Shown here: piece after piece, positions 166 through 7,243 of the stretch
Layout: each line of letters starts with the position of its first letter
How positions within the stretch are numbered: the first letter of the stretch is position 1
Assembly: GCA_043800725.1 (NCBI GenBank)
Contig: JAZDMR010000024.1
Span: forward strand, 1-53,838
From: a bacterium
Lineage (GTDB): Bacteria; Patescibacteriota; Patescibacteriia; HK-STAS-PATE-3
Direction: 5' to 3'
Length of the DNA stretch: 53,838 nt
The notes under the pieces: model-generated
What the model saw: only the letters and a program-made list of their open reading frames with translations
Databases searched by the model: none
Told to the model about the DNA's origin: nothing
Program-made: the position numbers and the translations under genes

Positions 166-205
166 CAAAAAGAACCCCTAATTGCACAGATGACAATTAG
201 GGGTT
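166..205 (-). terminator. intrinsic terminator after methyltransferase
   Basis: 12-bp stem AACCCCTAATTG (173-184)/CAATTAGGGGTT (194-205) followed by CTTTTT on the minus strand. Confidence 0.75.
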
Positions 206-1034
206 AGTGCCTCTTACGATGGTGAATCTTTCTCACCACTAAGAAGCCATCAATCTGCCGAAGAAATCCATTCCTCCCACGGATATAATCCAGTATCGAA
301 TCACGAATCTCGGCCGGAATGTCTTTCCAATTTGTGTTGAGAAGAAATTCCACAACCGAGATTACATCTTGCATAACGTCAGGATATGGCAGATGTAACT
401 TCGCTTTGACGCTGAACTTTTCAATCCGCAACGGCAATTGCTCGGCAATCTTTTGGAGCAGCGCCTCGGCGTCGTCAATGGTCAGAGAGTAATAGTCTCG
501 GCCCATGATTTTAGTCTTGAAGCGGGTTCTGAACTGGTGAATGTCGTCTTTTCCTCTGAGGACAATGACCAAGTGGCCGTCGGGTTTAAGGAGTTTTAAC
601 ATCCTGAGGTAAATCACCGGCAACCTGGCAATGTTATCTTTTGCCAGAGGCACGTGGGACGCCAAAATGATATCAAACAGCGTGGCGGTCGTGAAATTCT
701 CAAAGGTATCGCCGACGATATCCACGGACACGGTACGAGGGAAAAGATTTCTGGCACTACGCAGTTTTCCTGCTAAATCCTGGCTTGGTTCCAGAAGTGT
801 TGCGGATACCCCCTTGAGATCTCTCACCTTGCTTAGCGCTAGGCGCAGATATTCACCGGTGCCGCTGCCGATATCAAGCAAGGTCATCTTTTCTCTGACA
901 AGCAACCTAGACAGGATTTTCCCAAGAATTCCCGACGACTTTTCCTTTTCATCGGAGTAATTCAGGAAAATCACAAATGGCACTTCCTCGCCCGCGATGC
1001 CTTTACGATACTCAAAGCCAATTCTCTTTTTCAT
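204..1034 (-). CDS. class I SAM-dependent methyltransferase
   Basis: Motif I LLDIGSGTG, FDIILASH, LLKPDGHLVIV; start placed at ATG 1034 behind a GGAGGT SD. Confidence 0.85.
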   Translation of the reverse strand: MKKRIGFEYRKGIAGEEVPFVIFLNYSDEKEKSSGILGKILSRLLVREKMTLLDIGSGTGEYLRLALSKVRDLKGVSATLLEPSQDLAGKLRSARNLFPRTVSVDIVGDTFENFTTATLFDIILASHVPLAKDNIARLPVIYLRMLKLLKPDGHLVIVLRGKDDIHQFRTRFKTKIMGRDYYSLTIDDAEALLQKIAEQLPLRIEKFSVKAKLHLPYPDVMQDVISVVEFLLNTNWKDIPAEIRDSILDYIRGRNGFLRQIDGFLVVRKIHHRKRH

Positions 1035-1065
1035 GTTGTCATTTACCTCCGCTCTCGTAAGAGCA

Positions 1066-1106
1066 AAGAAAAAGGGGTTGCGCCATCCGCCTGACAACGC
1101 AACCCC
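1066..1106 (-). terminator. intrinsic terminator between radical SAM gene and methyltransferase
   Basis: Stem GGGGTTGCG (1074-1082)/CGCAACCCC (1098-1106) followed by TTTTTCTTT on the minus strand. Confidence 0.7.
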
Positions 1107-1118
1107 GGTGAAAAGAAG

Positions 1119-2213
1119 TTAAGGTGTCCGAATCCCATGGAGCTCCTCCTTGGCGAAGGTTAAGAACCACAGGCTTCGGTAATCCTCCCAGACAAGCGGT
1201 CTCATGTTGGTATGTCCGAAGATCCGCTCGAGAATCTGCCGAGCGTTTAGGTAGTACTCAAGACGATGTGCCTCAGGATCCCGCAAGGTTGTTTGGTGAT
1301 ACTTGTGCAGCTGCAATGTGTTGATGGTAGGGAACTTGTTAATACGTTCCCCAAGGCAGTTGAAGTGATACTCCATCACTCGCAACGGCTCCATCCCCAC
1401 AATGTAGGAGAAATTCACCTCGTGTCCTAAGCTCCGGGCGAAATCCATTAACTCACAAGCGTCCTGCAGACTGAGTGCCCTCTTGTCTTTTCTCAGCAGT
1501 TCGCGGCGTTCAAACGTCTCCAGCGAGAAGCAAATACCGAACGGCTGAATCTCGGTAACGCTTCTTAGCTGCTCTTGTGTCGCGATTTGCGAACCAAGAT
1601 AGAATATCTTCCCGGCGAATCGGTATTCCCGCAACACTTTCTTTAGTGTGATCAGGAAATGGCAAACCGCTTCGCCACTCTCATAACAGCCGGTCACTAC
1701 CGATATCTGGATCAGATGAGACAGGTCGGTCAAGCCGTACTTGGCCATCCAATCCTCGAAAAATTCCCTGAGATCAGAATCGCTTTTCAGACGCTTCCGG
1801 TCATAGGGAATTTGGTACGCCGTGTAGCAGAATTGGCAGCCGTGACACGATGTTCGAGAATTCGGGTTGATATTCAGCGACGATCCCTTTCTGCGCGGGT
1901 AGTGGGAATCGCAGATGTCCTCAGTTGGCCCGATTGCCTGACCGATAACTGTATTCTGCAAGAGCAGAGTGTTATCGACGATGACAAAGGGGCTGTCTTG
2001 GTTCACCGGCAGGGCGAAGTAGTAGTCAAGTTCGCCTCGTTGCTTGGCGTACTCGAACAACTTGCCGTCAGTTAGCCGGAAAGCCATCCGCATTCTGTTG
2101 TAATCGCACTCAAGATTAACGCCGTTGATATTGAGAGCGATGAAAAGAACGTCTTCCAGAGGTAAGTGATAACGCTCTGCAAGACGGGTCACGTACTCTA
2201 TGGTGAGCATCAC
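1119..2213 (-). CDS. radical SAM protein with non-canonical CX2CX2C motif (possibly NikJ/PolH-like)
   Basis: CHGCQFC (C123, C126, C129) followed by radical SAM-like barrel strands (ISVVTGC, FSLETF, YIVGME); start overlaps the upstream stop. Confidence 0.75.
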   Translation of the reverse strand: MMLTIEYVTRLAERYHLPLEDVLFIALNINGVNLECDYNRMRMAFRLTDGKLFEYAKQRGELDYYFALPVNQDSPFVIVDNTLLLQNTVIGQAIGPTEDICDSHYPRRKGSSLNINPNSRTSCHGCQFCYTAYQIPYDRKRLKSDSDLREFFEDWMAKYGLTDLSHLIQISVVTGCYESGEAVCHFLITLKKVLREYRFAGKIFYLGSQIATQEQLRSVTEIQPFGICFSLETFERRELLRKDKRALSLQDACELMDFARSLGHEVNFSYIVGMEPLRVMEYHFNCLGERINKFPTINTLQLHKYHQTTLRDPEAHRLEYYLNARQILERIFGHTNMRPLVWEDYRSLWFLTFAKEELHGIRTP

Positions 2214-3052
2214 TTACCTCCTTTTGGATTGGCGATGGCGTGAAGAAAACCGCTTTTCTTCTTGCAGACGATCAGGGTAGTGAGAACGGGCACAGCAATC
2301 GCGCCATGCTGTCCCACAATCTCCGAAATCCGCGCGAAGAATTTCTTGCGTTGCTCCTCAGGTACTTCCACGACCTTCGGGAAAGTGTTGAGGAGTTTTG
2401 GATACGTCTCGGCGCAGTAATTGTACACCGTGTAGTACTTGCGCAAGGCGACGGTGTAAAGCAGGGAGTTTTGAACCACTTCCTGCTCCCGGCGGTGGAG
2501 TTTGGTGAGCACTCCTTCATTCACCTCCGCAACGGATGACTCGTCAGGATATGCGTCCGGAAGGTACTCGCTGTAGGCCTTGTTCACCTCGGCGGTCACC
2601 GCCGAGTCCGAAAGAAAGAAGCTGTTCCAGACGAGCACCAGACTACCGGCGTCATCCAAGAGACCAAGAACCTTGCGGTGCTTGATACCTTCGTCGATCC
2701 AGTGGTAGGCCGTGAACGCCAGAATTGCGTCGAAACAATCCGACGACTCAAAACTCTCGAAGGTTCCTTCTAGAATCTCAACGTTCTGCAGTCCCTCGGT
2801 CTGTTTTCTAGCGATTGCCGCGAGATGACTGCCGGGTTCTAGGCCTACGATCCTGCCGCCGAGTTTGGCAAGTTCAACCGTGGCGATACCGCTGCCAGCA
2901 CCAATCTCGAGAAGTCGCGATGCGCTGTCGAGACCACACAGTTCCTTGATATCCGCGTAGAGTTGCGCAGGATATCCGGGACGAACCGAGTGGTATGTCT
3001 CGGCGAACACGTCAAACGACGCGTTGAAGATGTTTTTGCCTTTGAACATCAT
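2210..3052 (-). CDS. class I SAM-dependent methyltransferase
   Basis: Y..RPGYP, LLEIGAGSG, FDAILAFTAYHW; ATGA overlap with the upstream gene. Confidence 0.9.
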   Translation of the reverse strand: MMFKGKNIFNASFDVFAETYHSVRPGYPAQLYADIKELCGLDSASRLLEIGAGSGIATVELAKLGGRIVGLEPGSHLAAIARKQTEGLQNVEILEGTFESFESSDCFDAILAFTAYHWIDEGIKHRKVLGLLDDAGSLVLVWNSFFLSDSAVTAEVNKAYSEYLPDAYPDESSVAEVNEGVLTKLHRREQEVVQNSLLYTVALRKYYTVYNYCAETYPKLLNTFPKVVEVPEEQRKKFFARISEIVGQHGAIAVPVLTTLIVCKKKSGFLHAIANPKGGK

Positions 3053-3624
3053 AGTTGATCTCCTTGTGTTTGCCGCGCGAAGAACAGCATAAATCCGCTC
3101 TTGATCGCGGCGAGTTCCAGTGGACGGTGGAAATCACGACGGCCGCCGAGTTCAATCTTTGTAAGAATGAATCCGGGACCTCGTCCAAATTTCATTATAG
3201 CACGCTTCAGGCCGTCTTGACTATCTACCGCGCGTACGTATTGATAGCCAACTTCGCCCGCCAGCACGTCGAGTTTGGCGGTTTTGGACATTGATCGTTC
3301 CTCGCTGCACGAAGCATAAGCTCCGTTATCGAGGACAATGTGAAGCAAGTTTGTCGGCTGCTTGTGCCCGACAGTGACAGCGGATCCTAGGTTCATGAGG
3401 AGACTTGCGTCTCCATCAATCACCACCACTCTTTTTGTAAGTTGCGCCATAGCAAGCCCGAGTCCGATTGAAGACGCAAGCCCCATGGAACCGGGGACGT
3501 AGATGTTCCTCTCCGAATCGAATTTCTCGAAGATTTCTCGAGAGATCAATCCGGTGGTGGAAACAACCGCGTCTTGTGCGTCGATCGTTGTCATGATGAC
3601 TTCGATTGCTTCTTGTCTGTTCAT
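3049..3624 (-). CDS. ThDP-dependent decarboxylase beta subunit (sulfopyruvate/phosphonopyruvate decarboxylase, ComE-like)
   Basis: GSMGLASSIGLG and ThDP motif GDAS...LDN; ATG 3624 overlaps the alpha-subunit stop (ATGA). Confidence 0.85.
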   Translation of the reverse strand: MNRQEAIEVIMTTIDAQDAVVSTTGLISREIFEKFDSERNIYVPGSMGLASSIGLGLAMAQLTKRVVVIDGDASLLMNLGSAVTVGHKQPTNLLHIVLDNGAYASCSEERSMSKTAKLDVLAGEVGYQYVRAVDSQDGLKRAIMKFGRGPGFILTKIELGGRRDFHRPLELAAIKSGFMLFFARQTQGDQL

Positions 3625-4160
3625 CTGTGCCACCCCCTTTTGATAAGAAGGAAAGTCGGGAGCTCTGCCTTGCGCATCGTCTCAAACAGCGACCGCGTGA
3701 GATTTTCCAGATTTTGATTTCCTAAAACCTCAAACGGAAGGCCGAATGATTCGAGTAGGCGTTCGGTTGCCCGACCAGTGGTCAGGTGCTGCACGGCGTC
3801 TTCCCCTTCGCAACCGCGATAGGACACTACGAAAAAGATCGGCATTCTATAGGGGACGAGAAGAGACGCGATGTCGTTTGAAGCGGAGAAAAGACCGGAG
3901 TTCTGCATATAGATCACCGGGATTTTCCCGCCGAAGTACGCGCCGGCGGCTAGACCGACTGCTTCCGATTCTCGATTTGCGATCACGTGGATCATCGCGG
4001 CATCATCTTCAAAATTTTTGATGATGTGCCGCAGAACACCGCACGGGACTCCGGATGCGAAATTCACGCCGAGCTTCCGGAAAACTTCGTGAAGTAAATC
4101 GGCTTTCTCGCTCCGGTCGCCAACCAAGGAATTGAAGACACCCTTGTCGATTTGGCTCAT
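3621..4160 (-). CDS. ThDP-dependent decarboxylase alpha subunit (ComD-like, PYR domain)
   Basis: GVPC, RESEAVGLAAG, MQNSG, SYRG motifs; GGAGGT SD. Confidence 0.85.
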   Translation of the reverse strand: MSQIDKGVFNSLVGDRSEKADLLHEVFRKLGVNFASGVPCGVLRHIIKNFEDDAAMIHVIANRESEAVGLAAGAYFGGKIPVIYMQNSGLFSASNDIASLLVPYRMPIFFVVSYRGCEGEDAVQHLTTGRATERLLESFGLPFEVLGNQNLENLTRSLFETMRKAELPTFLLIKRGWHR

Positions 4161-5488: not shown

Positions 5489-6145
5489 TTAACTTTCAGC
5501 CATCGACTGTTTCAATTCAATATCGATTTGGTCTAAAAAACTGCGTAAATAAGCCGTCCTCTGACTGGCGATTTTTTTGCCGGTATCGGTATTCATTCCA
5601 GTCTCAATCCTCAACATGCGCGTAAAAATAAAATCTAAGCCATATCGCCTTTGATTCGGATTTCGTCTCCTACAAAAAGGGTCGTTGTCGTGAAAAAGCG
5701 GAATTTGCAATTGTCCTGTTGTAGCAAAAGCTCTCATAATTCCGATGGCTCCGATGGCATCAAGTCTGTCGGCATCCTGGATTATTTTCCCTTCAAGAAA
5801 CCCGACATTTCCTCCAAAGGTGTACGAACATTCCCTGATGGCGGCAGACACCTTGACGATTTTATTCGACGGATAATTGTTTATGCCCGAAAGTACTTTC
5901 TTGGCAAACTTTGCGCTCCTTATGGTGTCCGACCGCGCCCGAGGATCATTTTTTCTGGAGACGACTGAATCGTGGAACATTGCCGCGGGGATTAATATTT
6001 CCAAGTCCGTCCTTTCCTCAATTCCGATCTTTTCTGATATCTGTACGACTCTTTGCGTGTGATTGAAATCATGCGAAGCATCCGCAAAACGACTCTGGGC
6101 TTTTGCAATAAGTGACAGTTTTCTTTTTAGGCTTGTGGGTGCCAT
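5489..6145 (-). CDS. HD-domain phosphohydrolase (YedJ/YpgQ-like)
   Basis: HDFNH...HD...QDADRLDAIGAIGIMRAF. Confidence 0.9.
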   Translation of the reverse strand: MAPTSLKRKLSLIAKAQSRFADASHDFNHTQRVVQISEKIGIEERTDLEILIPAAMFHDSVVSRKNDPRARSDTIRSAKFAKKVLSGINNYPSNKIVKVSAAIRECSYTFGGNVGFLEGKIIQDADRLDAIGAIGIMRAFATTGQLQIPLFHDNDPFCRRRNPNQRRYGLDFIFTRMLRIETGMNTDTGKKIASQRTAYLRSFLDQIDIELKQSMAES

Positions 6146-6179: not shown

Positions 6180-7243
6180 CTTGGAGTCAAACATCTAGCG
6201 CAACGGATATGAGTATACTATCCGTATGCACACAACATCATACCGGCGGCTTACATCCGCCGAGCGCGAGGATATCAGCCGAGGCCTGGCGCAGAAAGAC
6301 AGTTTGTCGGCGATAGCGGATCGTTTAGGACGGAACGTGAGCACCATTTCCCGTGAGGTATGTTTCAACGGTGGAAAAAGCGGGTATCGCGCTCTTTTAG
6401 CCAGTCACCGTGCGCGAGCGAGCGCATCTTCTCGGAAACACGGTAAGAGTCGTTTGGCGCGTGAAGATCGTCTGCGGCAATATGTTCAGGAGAAGCTTGT
6501 AAAGCACTGGTCGCCCCGGGAAATCGTCAAACGGCTTAAAAAAGAGTATTCTGATGATATGACGATGCGGGTTTCACACGAAGCGATCTATCGATATATC
6601 TACGTACTGCCCCGCGGGTCCTTGAAACGGACACTGATCCAAGCCTTGAGGCAGGAACGGAAGTACCGCAGAACCAAGCGGAGGGGAGAGAATACCGGGG
6701 AAACACGGGGGAAAATCGCTGATATGCTCTCGATTGAAGAACGGCCAAAAGAAGTTGCCGACCGGACCGTTCCCGGCCACTGGGAAGGAGATCTTATCAT
6801 GGGCAAGTACAAACTAACGGCCTTAGGTACTCTGGTGGAGCGCATCACCCGCTACACGATCCTGGTGCCGCTTCAGGCGAAGGATGCGGTCAGCGTACGG
6901 AAAGCGTATGCCCGGGCACTGCGGTCTGTGCCTAAAGAGCTGGCGAAAACCCTCACCTATGATCAGGGAAAAGAGATGAGCGAACACAAACAGTTTACGA
7001 TTGATACCGGAATCCGGGTCTACTTCGCCCATCCCGGCTCTCCCTGGGAACGCGGTACGAATGAGAATACTAATGGTCTGATTCGCCAGTATTTTCCAAA
7101 GGGGACCGAGTTTGACACAGTGCCGGTCAGGGAAGTTAAACGCGTACAGCGGCAGCTCAATGACAGGCCGAGAGCGGCATTGGATTTCTCCAAACCCGAT
7201 GAGGTATTTAACAAACTTGTTGCGTTAAAAGTTTGAAACCAAG
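6180..7243 (+). mobile_element. IS30-family insertion sequence
   Basis: 25-bp terminal inverted repeats (6180-6204 and 7219-7243, 20/25 match), flanking AA dinucleotide as possible 2-bp target duplication, intact transposase. Confidence 0.9.
6226..7236 (+). CDS. IS30-family transposase
   Basis: N-terminal HTH (IADRLGRNVSTISRE), GHWEGD, TYDQGKE, PWERGTNENTNGLIRQYFPKG. Confidence 0.97.
   Translation: MHTTSYRRLTSAEREDISRGLAQKDSLSAIADRLGRNVSTISREVCFNGGKSGYRALLASHRARASASSRKHGKSRLAREDRLRQYVQEKLVKHWSPREIVKRLKKEYSDDMTMRVSHEAIYRYIYVLPRGSLKRTLIQALRQERKYRRTKRRGENTGETRGKIADMLSIEERPKEVADRTVPGHWEGDLIMGKYKLTALGTLVERITRYTILVPLQAKDAVSVRKAYARALRSVPKELAKTLTYDQGKEMSEHKQFTIDTGIRVYFAHPGSPWERGTNENTNGLIRQYFPKGTEFDTVPVREVKRVQRQLNDRPRAALDFSKPDEVFNKLVALKV

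Follow-up and report, generated by a model that had tools for sequence, protein, structure and literature searches.

The window analysed here, the 53,838-nucleotide contig JAZDMR010000024.1 of a Patescibacteriota bacterium (assembly GCA_043800725.1), carries at positions 1119-2213 an open reading frame (ORF) that likely encodes a genuine, highly divergent enzyme of the radical S-adenosylmethionine (SAM) superfamily, belonging to a so far uncharacterised family that comprises about 300 sequence clusters. The radical-SAM assignment is weak by sequence and clear by the modelled fold. Judging from its residues and gene neighbourhood, the protein is probably a SAM-cleaving enzyme that acts with a thiamine-diphosphate (TPP) enzyme and a methyltransferase in a short pathway to a small methylated metabolite. 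The genes concerned form a cassette that is horizontally mobile across very different microbes.

The predicted fold is that of small-molecule radical-SAM enzymes

The AlphaFold2 model of the protein, built from a 31-row alignment, reached a predicted local distance difference test score (pLDDT) of 90.1 and a predicted template-modelling (TM) score of 0.90. It comprises an N-terminal alpha/beta domain (residues ~1-110), a barrel core (~112-300) and a C-terminal closing segment (RPLVWEDYRSLW), and the cysteines C123, C126 and C129 come after a predicted strand at residues 112-115. The Foldseek matches listed at E <= 1e-3 were radical-SAM enzymes, except for the phosphorylmutase 4iqd at rank 34, and the best of them was LipA (5exj; E 8.5e-7, TM 0.43-0.54). 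When the model was compared with 48,161 chains using VIA-align, ranks 1-34 were occupied by radical-SAM or related entries, led by MqnE (Z 13.5), HydG (13.4), LipA (13.3), human LIAS (13.1) and PylB (13.0), with NosL (12.8), viperin (12.2) and BioB (12.1) further down. By this modelled structure, the best-matching group is that of the small-molecule radical-SAM enzymes with a complete barrel. Pfam Radical_SAM (PF04055) is present in the precomputed annotation of some homologs, and the ESM Atlas clusters are labelled only 'radical SAM / hypothetical'. NCBIfam scans of ten distant relatives returned chance-level matches only and no named neighbour family.

The cluster motif looks like a shortened variant within one family

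Cysteines stand at positions 36, 101, 123, 126, 129, 176, 184, 228, 253 and 286 of the protein, and the strings around those discussed here read EDICDS (C101), SCHGCQFCY (C123/C126/C129) and VVTGCYESG (C176). The features listed in the original prediction, that is, the motif C123-HG-C126-QF-C129, extra cysteines at 101 and 176 (VVTGC) and the C-terminal string RPLVWEDYRSLWFLTFA, which begins at residue 338, are all present in the ORF sequence. Its description of the product as a radical-SAM enzyme with a CX2CX2C motif is likewise borne out, both by the fold matches and by the conservation of the motif. CX2CX2C is unchanged in 31/31 aligned close homologs, and the pattern C.GC.FC is matched by 118 of the 120 close homologs listed. 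In an alignment of 71 near-full-length family members, which underlies all the 71-member counts below, the only universal cysteines are C123, C126 and C129 (69/71 each). The family thus conserves neither a second cluster nor a fourth ligand, which would leave one iron of the cluster open. The other cysteines are less widely kept: C176 is retained in 51 members (72%) and C101 in 33, and conservation of C36 and C228 is confined to the clade of the candidate phyla radiation (CPR). An auxiliary Fe-S cluster formed by C36, C101, C176 and C228 was considered and rejected, as only C176 (51/71) and C101 (33/71) persist outside the CPR clade. Three CPR homologs (P0075, P0080 and P0102) have C101 changed to Ser together with C176 changed to Asn, a co-change which hints that the two cysteines work as a pair in the clade having both; the segment after the motif also deviates in these proteins, reading TSHL or TSRL instead of TAYQ.

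Among 73 near-full-length family representatives (at least 335 amino acids), 61 carry CX2CX2C, nine carry CX3CX2C (P0145, P0159, P0218, P0221, P0233, P0250, P0261, P0269 and P0270) and three carry neither. The nine CX3CX2C motifs share their alignment columns with CX2CX2C, a single-residue gap falling between the first and second cysteines of the CX2CX2C members. Because these relatives hold CX3CX2C at the same place, CX2CX2C looks like the CX3CX2C loop of SAM-binding clusters shortened by one residue. P0145 and P0159 are full-length members of the family (profile E 3.6e-78 and 4.9e-67), and several CX3CX2C relatives lie at or near the Pfam Radical_SAM threshold, with P0250 scoring 34.2 bits. 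Furthermore, the aromatic residue preceding the last cysteine, F128, is found in 65/71 members, and T174, G175, E232, R237, K244, Y270 and G273 each occur in at least 62/71. Judging from secondary structure, three conserved groups, T174-G175-(C176), S230/E232 and Y270/G273/E275, fall where the barrel strands predicted to be the second, fourth and fifth end. They may correspond to the SAM-binding GGE motif, the ribose motif and the GxIxGxxE motif, respectively.

The family is small and scattered

A word-indexed search brought up 1568 candidates, 185 of them homologs at E <= 0.001. The top 120 homologs share 53-96% identity with the protein and are mostly unnamed; the named ones are mostly Patescibacteria entries called 'hypothetical protein', in agreement with the CPR setting that had been proposed for this DNA. 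When 1.84 billion cluster representatives were scanned with HMMER using a 31-sequence profile, only 303 clusters were found at E <= 0.001, which marks the family as rare. Among 401 genomes sampled from the window's phylum, the profile matched two, one of them being the window's own. A scan of one genome per species yielded 30 loci, whose hosts comprise Patescibacteria, Aenigmatarchaeota, Micrarchaeota, 'Candidatus Calidifonticultor', uncultured Clostridia and Treponema lecithinolyticum. A tblastn search of 72,556 plasmids matched 39 records, of which 30 are from Clostridium perfringens (~70-77 kb), five from Streptomyces, three from Nocardia and one from Mycobacterium, and 50,697 phage records contained no match to the family.

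The sole fusions seen join a GrpB nucleotidyltransferase-fold domain at the N terminus to the radical-SAM protein (representative clusters P0146, P0149 and P0167); a search for longer fused forms of 638-2000 amino acids found none, which is weak evidence. A free GrpB gene (L029:11276-11845) was also observed 2 kb from the Micrarchaeota radical-SAM copy. In a few loci the radical-SAM gene appears split or truncated, with two overlapping ORFs at L032:1500-2415 and partial tblastn matches at L018:8001-8585 and L028:8001-8447; these copies may reflect frameshifts, decay or assembly errors.

The gene belongs to a mobile cassette with a thiamine enzyme and methyltransferases

In the window, the reverse strand reads in order the alpha and beta subunits of a split decarboxylase (TPP-alpha and TPP-beta), a class I SAM methyltransferase (MT_B), the radical-SAM gene and a second class I SAM methyltransferase (MT_A), and stops and starts overlap upstream of the radical-SAM gene (Table 1). 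The pairing with a 2-oxo-acid decarboxylase that had been read from the sequence holds, since both subunits were recognised with Pfam and NCBIfam upstream of the gene, and the same order recurs elsewhere: in 20 of 31 loci, TPP-alpha, TPP-beta, MT_B and the radical-SAM gene follow one another on a single strand, and one more locus has both TPP subunits nearby. MT_B lies directly upstream of the radical-SAM gene in 24/31 loci. MT_A is an accessory member of the cassette, found downstream of the radical-SAM gene at full length in 4/31 loci and as short remnants in two.

The decarboxylase resembles the Ppd/ComDE type. On TIGR03297, a model of the fused enzyme with a cut-off of 312.5, the beta subunit scored 157.6 bits and the alpha subunit 109.2 bits; on the models TIGR03846 and TIGR03845, the beta subunit reached 136.3 bits (cut-off 221.5) and the alpha subunit 109.1 bits (cut-off 148), respectively. 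Phosphonate synthesis was judged unlikely, as no phosphoenolpyruvate (PEP) mutase was found: the model PF13714 had 0 matches in the window's genome (91.8% complete). It matched one of five other cassette genomes, where its position relative to the cassette was not compared, and the model is non-specific, matching also in 11/14 control genomes. For MT_B, distant PDB matches were 3hnr (E 2e-9), HvrF (9e72; E 5e-8) and trans-aconitate methyltransferase (3g5t; E 0.002); HvrF is termed an O-methyltransferase in a preprint (bioRxiv 10.1101/2022.11.22.517531). A complex prediction for the radical-SAM protein with MT_B, made without controls, scored 0.00 and counts neither for nor against binding.

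The thiamine enzyme appears to be exchangeable. In 6/31 loci, with Clostridia and Treponema among the hosts, the decarboxylase is replaced by a phosphoketolase-family protein (XFP_N, XFP; 680-750 amino acids), next to which a HAD hydrolase gene is found in loci L023 and L031. Three uncultured Clostridia show the order XFP, MT_B, radical SAM, which mirrors the CPR order, and the thiamine enzyme has thus been exchanged in place. A phosphoketolase-like gene is present in all four plasmid loci inspected (C. perfringens, Streptomyces, Mycobacterium and Nocardia), and, taken together, some thiamine enzyme occurs in 27/31 loci and 4/4 plasmid loci. The plasmid versions are richer in genes. In C. perfringens (L033; NZ_CP075989.1, 1-13824), the radical-SAM homolog, annotated as hypothetical, stands with HAD, adenylation-domain, phosphoketolase-family, PHP and methyltransferase genes, and 29 other C. 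perfringens plasmid records likewise carry a version of it, including NC_007773.1, which we take to be pCPF5603. The extra genes are enolase-superfamily, HAD, methyltransferase, creatininase-family, PhyH and Sua5-family genes in the Streptomyces locus, and GGDEF, enolase-like, HAD, MFS transporter and methyltransferase genes in the Mycobacterium locus. The largest version, on a Nocardia farcinica plasmid (L036; NZ_CP133581.1), holds pyrF, nucleoside hydrolase, MR/MLE, HAD and GGDEF genes, two further radical-SAM genes and two methyltransferase genes. The flanks of the cassettes are variable and include recombinase, tRNA ligase, NrdD/NrdG, glycosyltransferase and ABC transporter genes.

In a maximum-likelihood tree of 33 copies, which was rooted at the midpoint only and has several long branches, the phosphoketolase-type loci are basal and paraphyletic, and the CPR loci with the split decarboxylase form one derived clade of 19 rows (support 100/100). 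The CPR copies of the cassette share 54-96% identity. The GC content of the window's cassette (204-4160) is 51.1%, compared with 44.7% +/- 1.5% (maximum 48.3%) in equal-sized windows elsewhere in the contig, and its left edge is truncated by the contig end. A conserved protein of 148-176 amino acids with no Pfam match and the motifs YCxxMPRDPxP, EDGA(I/V)LIQ and GSGYNSxxDFS was also observed in three loci (L023:4892-5347, L025:262-708 and L026:84-614); in L025 and L026 its gene immediately precedes the radical-SAM gene, and in L023 it is found on the other strand, ~3.7 kb downstream.

Table 1. Positions of the cassette genes, sequence features and adjoining genes in the window
Feature	Position	Strand	Basis or remark
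MT_A, second class I SAM methyltransferase, 297 amino acids from TTG	204..1097	-	Pfam Methyltransf_23; a later ATG start is likely
Radical-SAM-fold protein	1119..2213	-	ORF list; 364 amino acids from GTG 2213, probably 363 from ATG 2210
Codons of C123-H-G-C126-Q-F-C129	1827..1847	-	predicted ligands of a site-differentiated [4Fe-4S] cluster
MT_B, class I SAM methyltransferase, 280 amino acids	2210..3052	-	Pfam Methyltransf_25/11
Shine-Dalgarno sequence AAAGGAGGT	2216..2224	-	ahead of GTG(2213)-ATG(2210), by sequence reading
TPP-beta, beta subunit of split Ppd/ComDE-like decarboxylase, thiamine-diphosphate-binding	3049..3633	-	Pfam TPP_enzyme_C; PDB 9iz3_B, E 1e-28
TPP-alpha, alpha subunit of split Ppd/ComDE-like decarboxylase	3621..4160	-	Pfam TPP_enzyme_N; PDB 9iz3_A, E 2e-19
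Nudix protein, 351 amino acids	4418..5473	-	Nudix domain at residues 9-112
HD-domain phosphohydrolase	5489..6145	-	NCBIfam PRK10119, 148 bits (below cut-off 286)
IS30-type transposase	6226..7236	+	HTH_38 + rve

Start codon and adjoining genes in the window

The true start of the radical-SAM gene is probably the ATG at 2210, because AAAGGAGGT precedes the GTG-ATG pair, the stop of the upstream gene overlaps the start, and nearly all homologs have 363 amino acids. This start would lower every residue number by 1; the numbering used here is kept from GTG 2213. The overlapping stop is the TGA (2210-2212) of MT_B, and such an overlap indicates translational coupling of the two genes.

Beyond the cassette lie Nudix and HD-domain genes, which are not counted as members because their GC content of 43-44% is the contig's own composition. 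About 230 C-terminal residues of the Nudix protein have no Pfam or NCBIfam match. The IS30-type transposase gene that follows has 53.3% GC, against 44.7% for the contig, and in another cassette locus (L005) a 37%-identical IS30-type transposase copy lies ~700 bp upstream of the cassette.

Proposed mechanism and pathway

From these data, the following mechanism is suggested. C123, C126 and C129 would coordinate a [4Fe-4S] cluster and leave its fourth iron to bind SAM, and upon reduction SAM would be cleaved to a 5'-deoxyadenosyl radical. This radical would abstract a hydrogen atom from, or add to, a small anionic substrate, for which R42, R107, R237, K244 and R325 probably form the binding site; the conservation of these basic residues is the reason for suggesting an anion. 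C176, which would lie beside the presumed SAM site, is a candidate hydrogen-atom donor in the 72% of the family that retain it. The radical-SAM enzyme, the TPP enzyme and the class I SAM methyltransferase would together constitute a short mobile pathway whose product may be a small methylated metabolite, and some hosts probably export it, since ABC or MFS transporter genes adjoin some copies of the cassette. The distant resemblance of MT_B to O-methyltransferases that act on small acids hints weakly at a carboxylate substrate, and the accessory genes related to nucleotides (GrpB fusions, GGDEF, pyrF and nucleoside hydrolase) hint, also weakly, at a nucleotide-derived one. A bolder proposal, which we regard as unlikely, is that a minimal three-enzyme pathway with interchangeable thiamine enzymes, passed between phyla that range from CPR bacteria and DPANN archaea to gut Clostridia, Treponema and the plasmid-bearing actinomycetes and C. 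perfringens, couples radical chemistry to a thiamine-derived two-carbon (C2) unit and thereby makes an undescribed methylated, possibly nucleotide-derived, bioactive metabolite. This proposal comes from the fact that the split decarboxylase and the phosphoketolase-like enzyme have in common a thiamine-bound two-carbon acyl-anion equivalent.

Alternative explanations

Several observations weigh against the assignment of a SAM-cleaving enzyme and its place in such a pathway. The protein scores 16.6 bits on Pfam Radical_SAM, where the cut-off is 29.5; no NCBIfam family matches it; and searches of PDB sequences with the protein and with the family profile returned nothing meaningful. The fold matches are middling (TM 0.35-0.56, root-mean-square deviation 4-5 A), the tied scores single out no radical-SAM family, and the weakest part of the model is the cluster loop at residues 121-140 (pLDDT 68 and 54). 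The classical ferredoxin spacing is also CX2CX2C, and cluster binding alone is no proof of SAM chemistry. Moreover, the GGE position reads TGC, the active-site placement of the conserved residues was derived from secondary structure and not from model coordinates, and three near-full-length representatives (P0214, P0232 and P0264), which may be inactive or repurposed members, have no cysteine motif. As for the pathway, the radical-SAM protein is linked to the thiamine enzyme by synteny only, and no thiamine enzyme was seen in 4/31 loci, three of them on short contigs or near a contig end and the fourth, L029, with none despite 8 kb on each side. Some of these points would suit an Fe-S protein on a radical-SAM-like barrel that has lost SAM cleavage and uses its cluster for electron transfer or Lewis-acid catalysis, e.g., in a dehydratase-type step on the substrate or product of the thiamine enzyme. 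Such a protein would explain the spacing, called a ferredoxin motif in PMC9431491, as well as the subthreshold Pfam score and the loss of GGE. We nevertheless hold it to be improbable: CX3CX2C relatives occur inside and next to the family, F128 is conserved, as are residues where the ribose and GxIxGxxE motifs would be expected, and the absence of a fourth conserved cysteine leaves one iron open, as in SAM-binding clusters. The original prediction had gone further in another direction and likened the protein to NikJ/PolH, the octosyl-acid synthases that cyclise an enolpyruvyl nucleotide in nucleoside-antibiotic synthesis. The radical-SAM fold, the conserved C176 near the presumed SAM site and the nucleotide-related genes of some distant cassettes (GrpB fusions, GGDEF, pyrF and nucleoside hydrolase) could be read this way, and so could the nominal first place among the structural matches of MqnE, whose substrate is an enolpyruvyl ether too, although six others, no more than 1.5 Z behind, tie with it. 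PolH, however, is reported to have a canonical C225XXXC229XXC232 motif behind an N-terminal part of ~220 residues (PMC5365060), whereas the motif here is CX2CX2C at residue 123, ~100 residues earlier. The eight neighbours scanned encode methyltransferases, thiamine-enzyme subunits, Nudix and HD proteins and an IS30-type transposase, and none is an enolpyruvyl transferase, an aminotransferase or another gene of the nikkomycin/polyoxin or nucleoside-antibiotic type; the family has no NCBIfam match and no PDB sequence match either. To our knowledge, the octosyl-acid route employs neither a thiamine enzyme nor a methyltransferase, the two constant partners found here. The type and position of the motif and the gene context led us to reject membership of NikJ/PolH, with PolH compared through that published description, and a function of this type is hardly credible.

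The substrate might instead be a macromolecule (rRNA, tRNA or protein), so that the enzyme and the methyltransferases would make up a mobile resistance or modification module. MT_B does match Erm, KsgA and PCMT-type models weakly (E 6e-8 to 1e-6, far below the cut-offs), and the cassette is mobile and found on plasmids. This is quite improbable in view of the thiamine enzyme in 27/31 loci and 4/4 plasmid loci and of the HAD, enolase-superfamily, adenylation and PHP enzymes of the wider versions, which indicate small-molecule chemistry. In addition, no RNA-binding or peptide-recognition (RRE, SPASM) domain appeared in the Pfam and NCBIfam scans, and no precursor-peptide gene was noticed, although no systematic search for one was made. 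The sporadic distribution, the mobile cassette and its variable flanks would also be expected of a defence island in which a viperin-like antiviral enzyme makes a modified nucleotide; viperin itself turned up in the fold comparisons (Foldseek E 1e-4; Z 12.2), several conserved Arg/Lys residues could bind a triphosphate, and some cassette versions have nucleotide-related accessory genes. This idea is very improbable, since no NCBIfam viperin model matches, a Z of 12.2 is no better than those of other families, the 50,697 phage records contain no homolog, and the transporter genes found next to some copies speak for a product that is exported. We know of no viperin system that includes thiamine enzymes or methyltransferases, which we also count against it. 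A listed defence system was rejected as well, with no PADLOC model matching the radical-SAM protein or the thiamine enzymes and no match in the phage records. A SAM-cleaving enzyme in a short small-molecule pathway is the reading that we carry into the comparison below.

Significance and comparison with known systems

If this reading is true, CX2CX2C would be a new cluster-motif spacing for the radical-SAM superfamily, and the presence of two spacings in one family would offer a natural test of how loop length relates to SAM binding. Small at 3-5 genes and highly conserved, the cassette has been acquired by CPR bacteria and DPANN archaea, which are thought to be nearly without secondary metabolism, and Clostridium perfringens, Nocardia, Mycobacterium and Streptomyces carry it on plasmids. 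Identification of the product would therefore reveal a metabolite gained by gene transfer in very different anaerobes and in actinomycetes, and would explain how two unrelated thiamine enzymes can serve one pathway. Should the C2-unit proposal be true, ultra-small symbionts would for the first time be credited with a biosynthetic capability of this kind. In the full-text literature, outside which most subscription journals lie, we found no description of a CX2CX2C or CxxCxxC radical-SAM enzyme, nor of a gene cluster combining phosphoketolase, radical-SAM and methyltransferase genes.

The protein shares its barrel, in which the cluster loop follows the first strand, with MqnE (6xi9), HydG (4rtb), LipA (4u0p, 5exj), PylB (3t7v), NosL (4r33), BioB (1r30, 8vcw), ThiH (7pd1) and HydE. 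These full-barrel enzymes act on small metabolites and align with it at Z 11.8-13.5 over 224-248 residues, but their identity to it is 8-14%. They carry CX3CX2C where this family has CX2CX2C, and LipA, BioB, HydG and HydE possess a set of auxiliary-cluster cysteines of which this family has no conserved counterpart. Its own N-terminal domain and the conserved C-terminal RPLVWE[DN]YRSLW segment set the family further apart from them. With NikJ/PolH, for which a catalytic cysteine has been proposed, it has in common the radical-SAM superfamily and, presumably, small-molecule substrates, whereas its context is a thiamine enzyme and methyltransferases, with no enolpyruvyl transferase among the eight neighbours. 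The partner decarboxylase belongs to the same two-subunit thiamine-diphosphate subfamily as the split phosphonopyruvate decarboxylase (PDB 9iz3 A/B, 'putative') and the sulfopyruvate decarboxylase ComD/ComE. It differs from Ppd and ComDE in that all its NCBIfam scores are below the equivalog cut-offs, and from Ppd also in that PEP mutase was not found in its genome and a phosphoketolase-like enzyme can take its place. Finally, non-canonical spacings are known within the radical-SAM superfamily, namely CX2CX4C in ThiC, CX5CX2C in HmdB and CX14CX2C in QueE. As in those enzymes, the length of the three-cysteine loop varies here while the superfamily fold is retained; unlike in them, the change is a shortening by a single residue, and both spacings coexist in one family.

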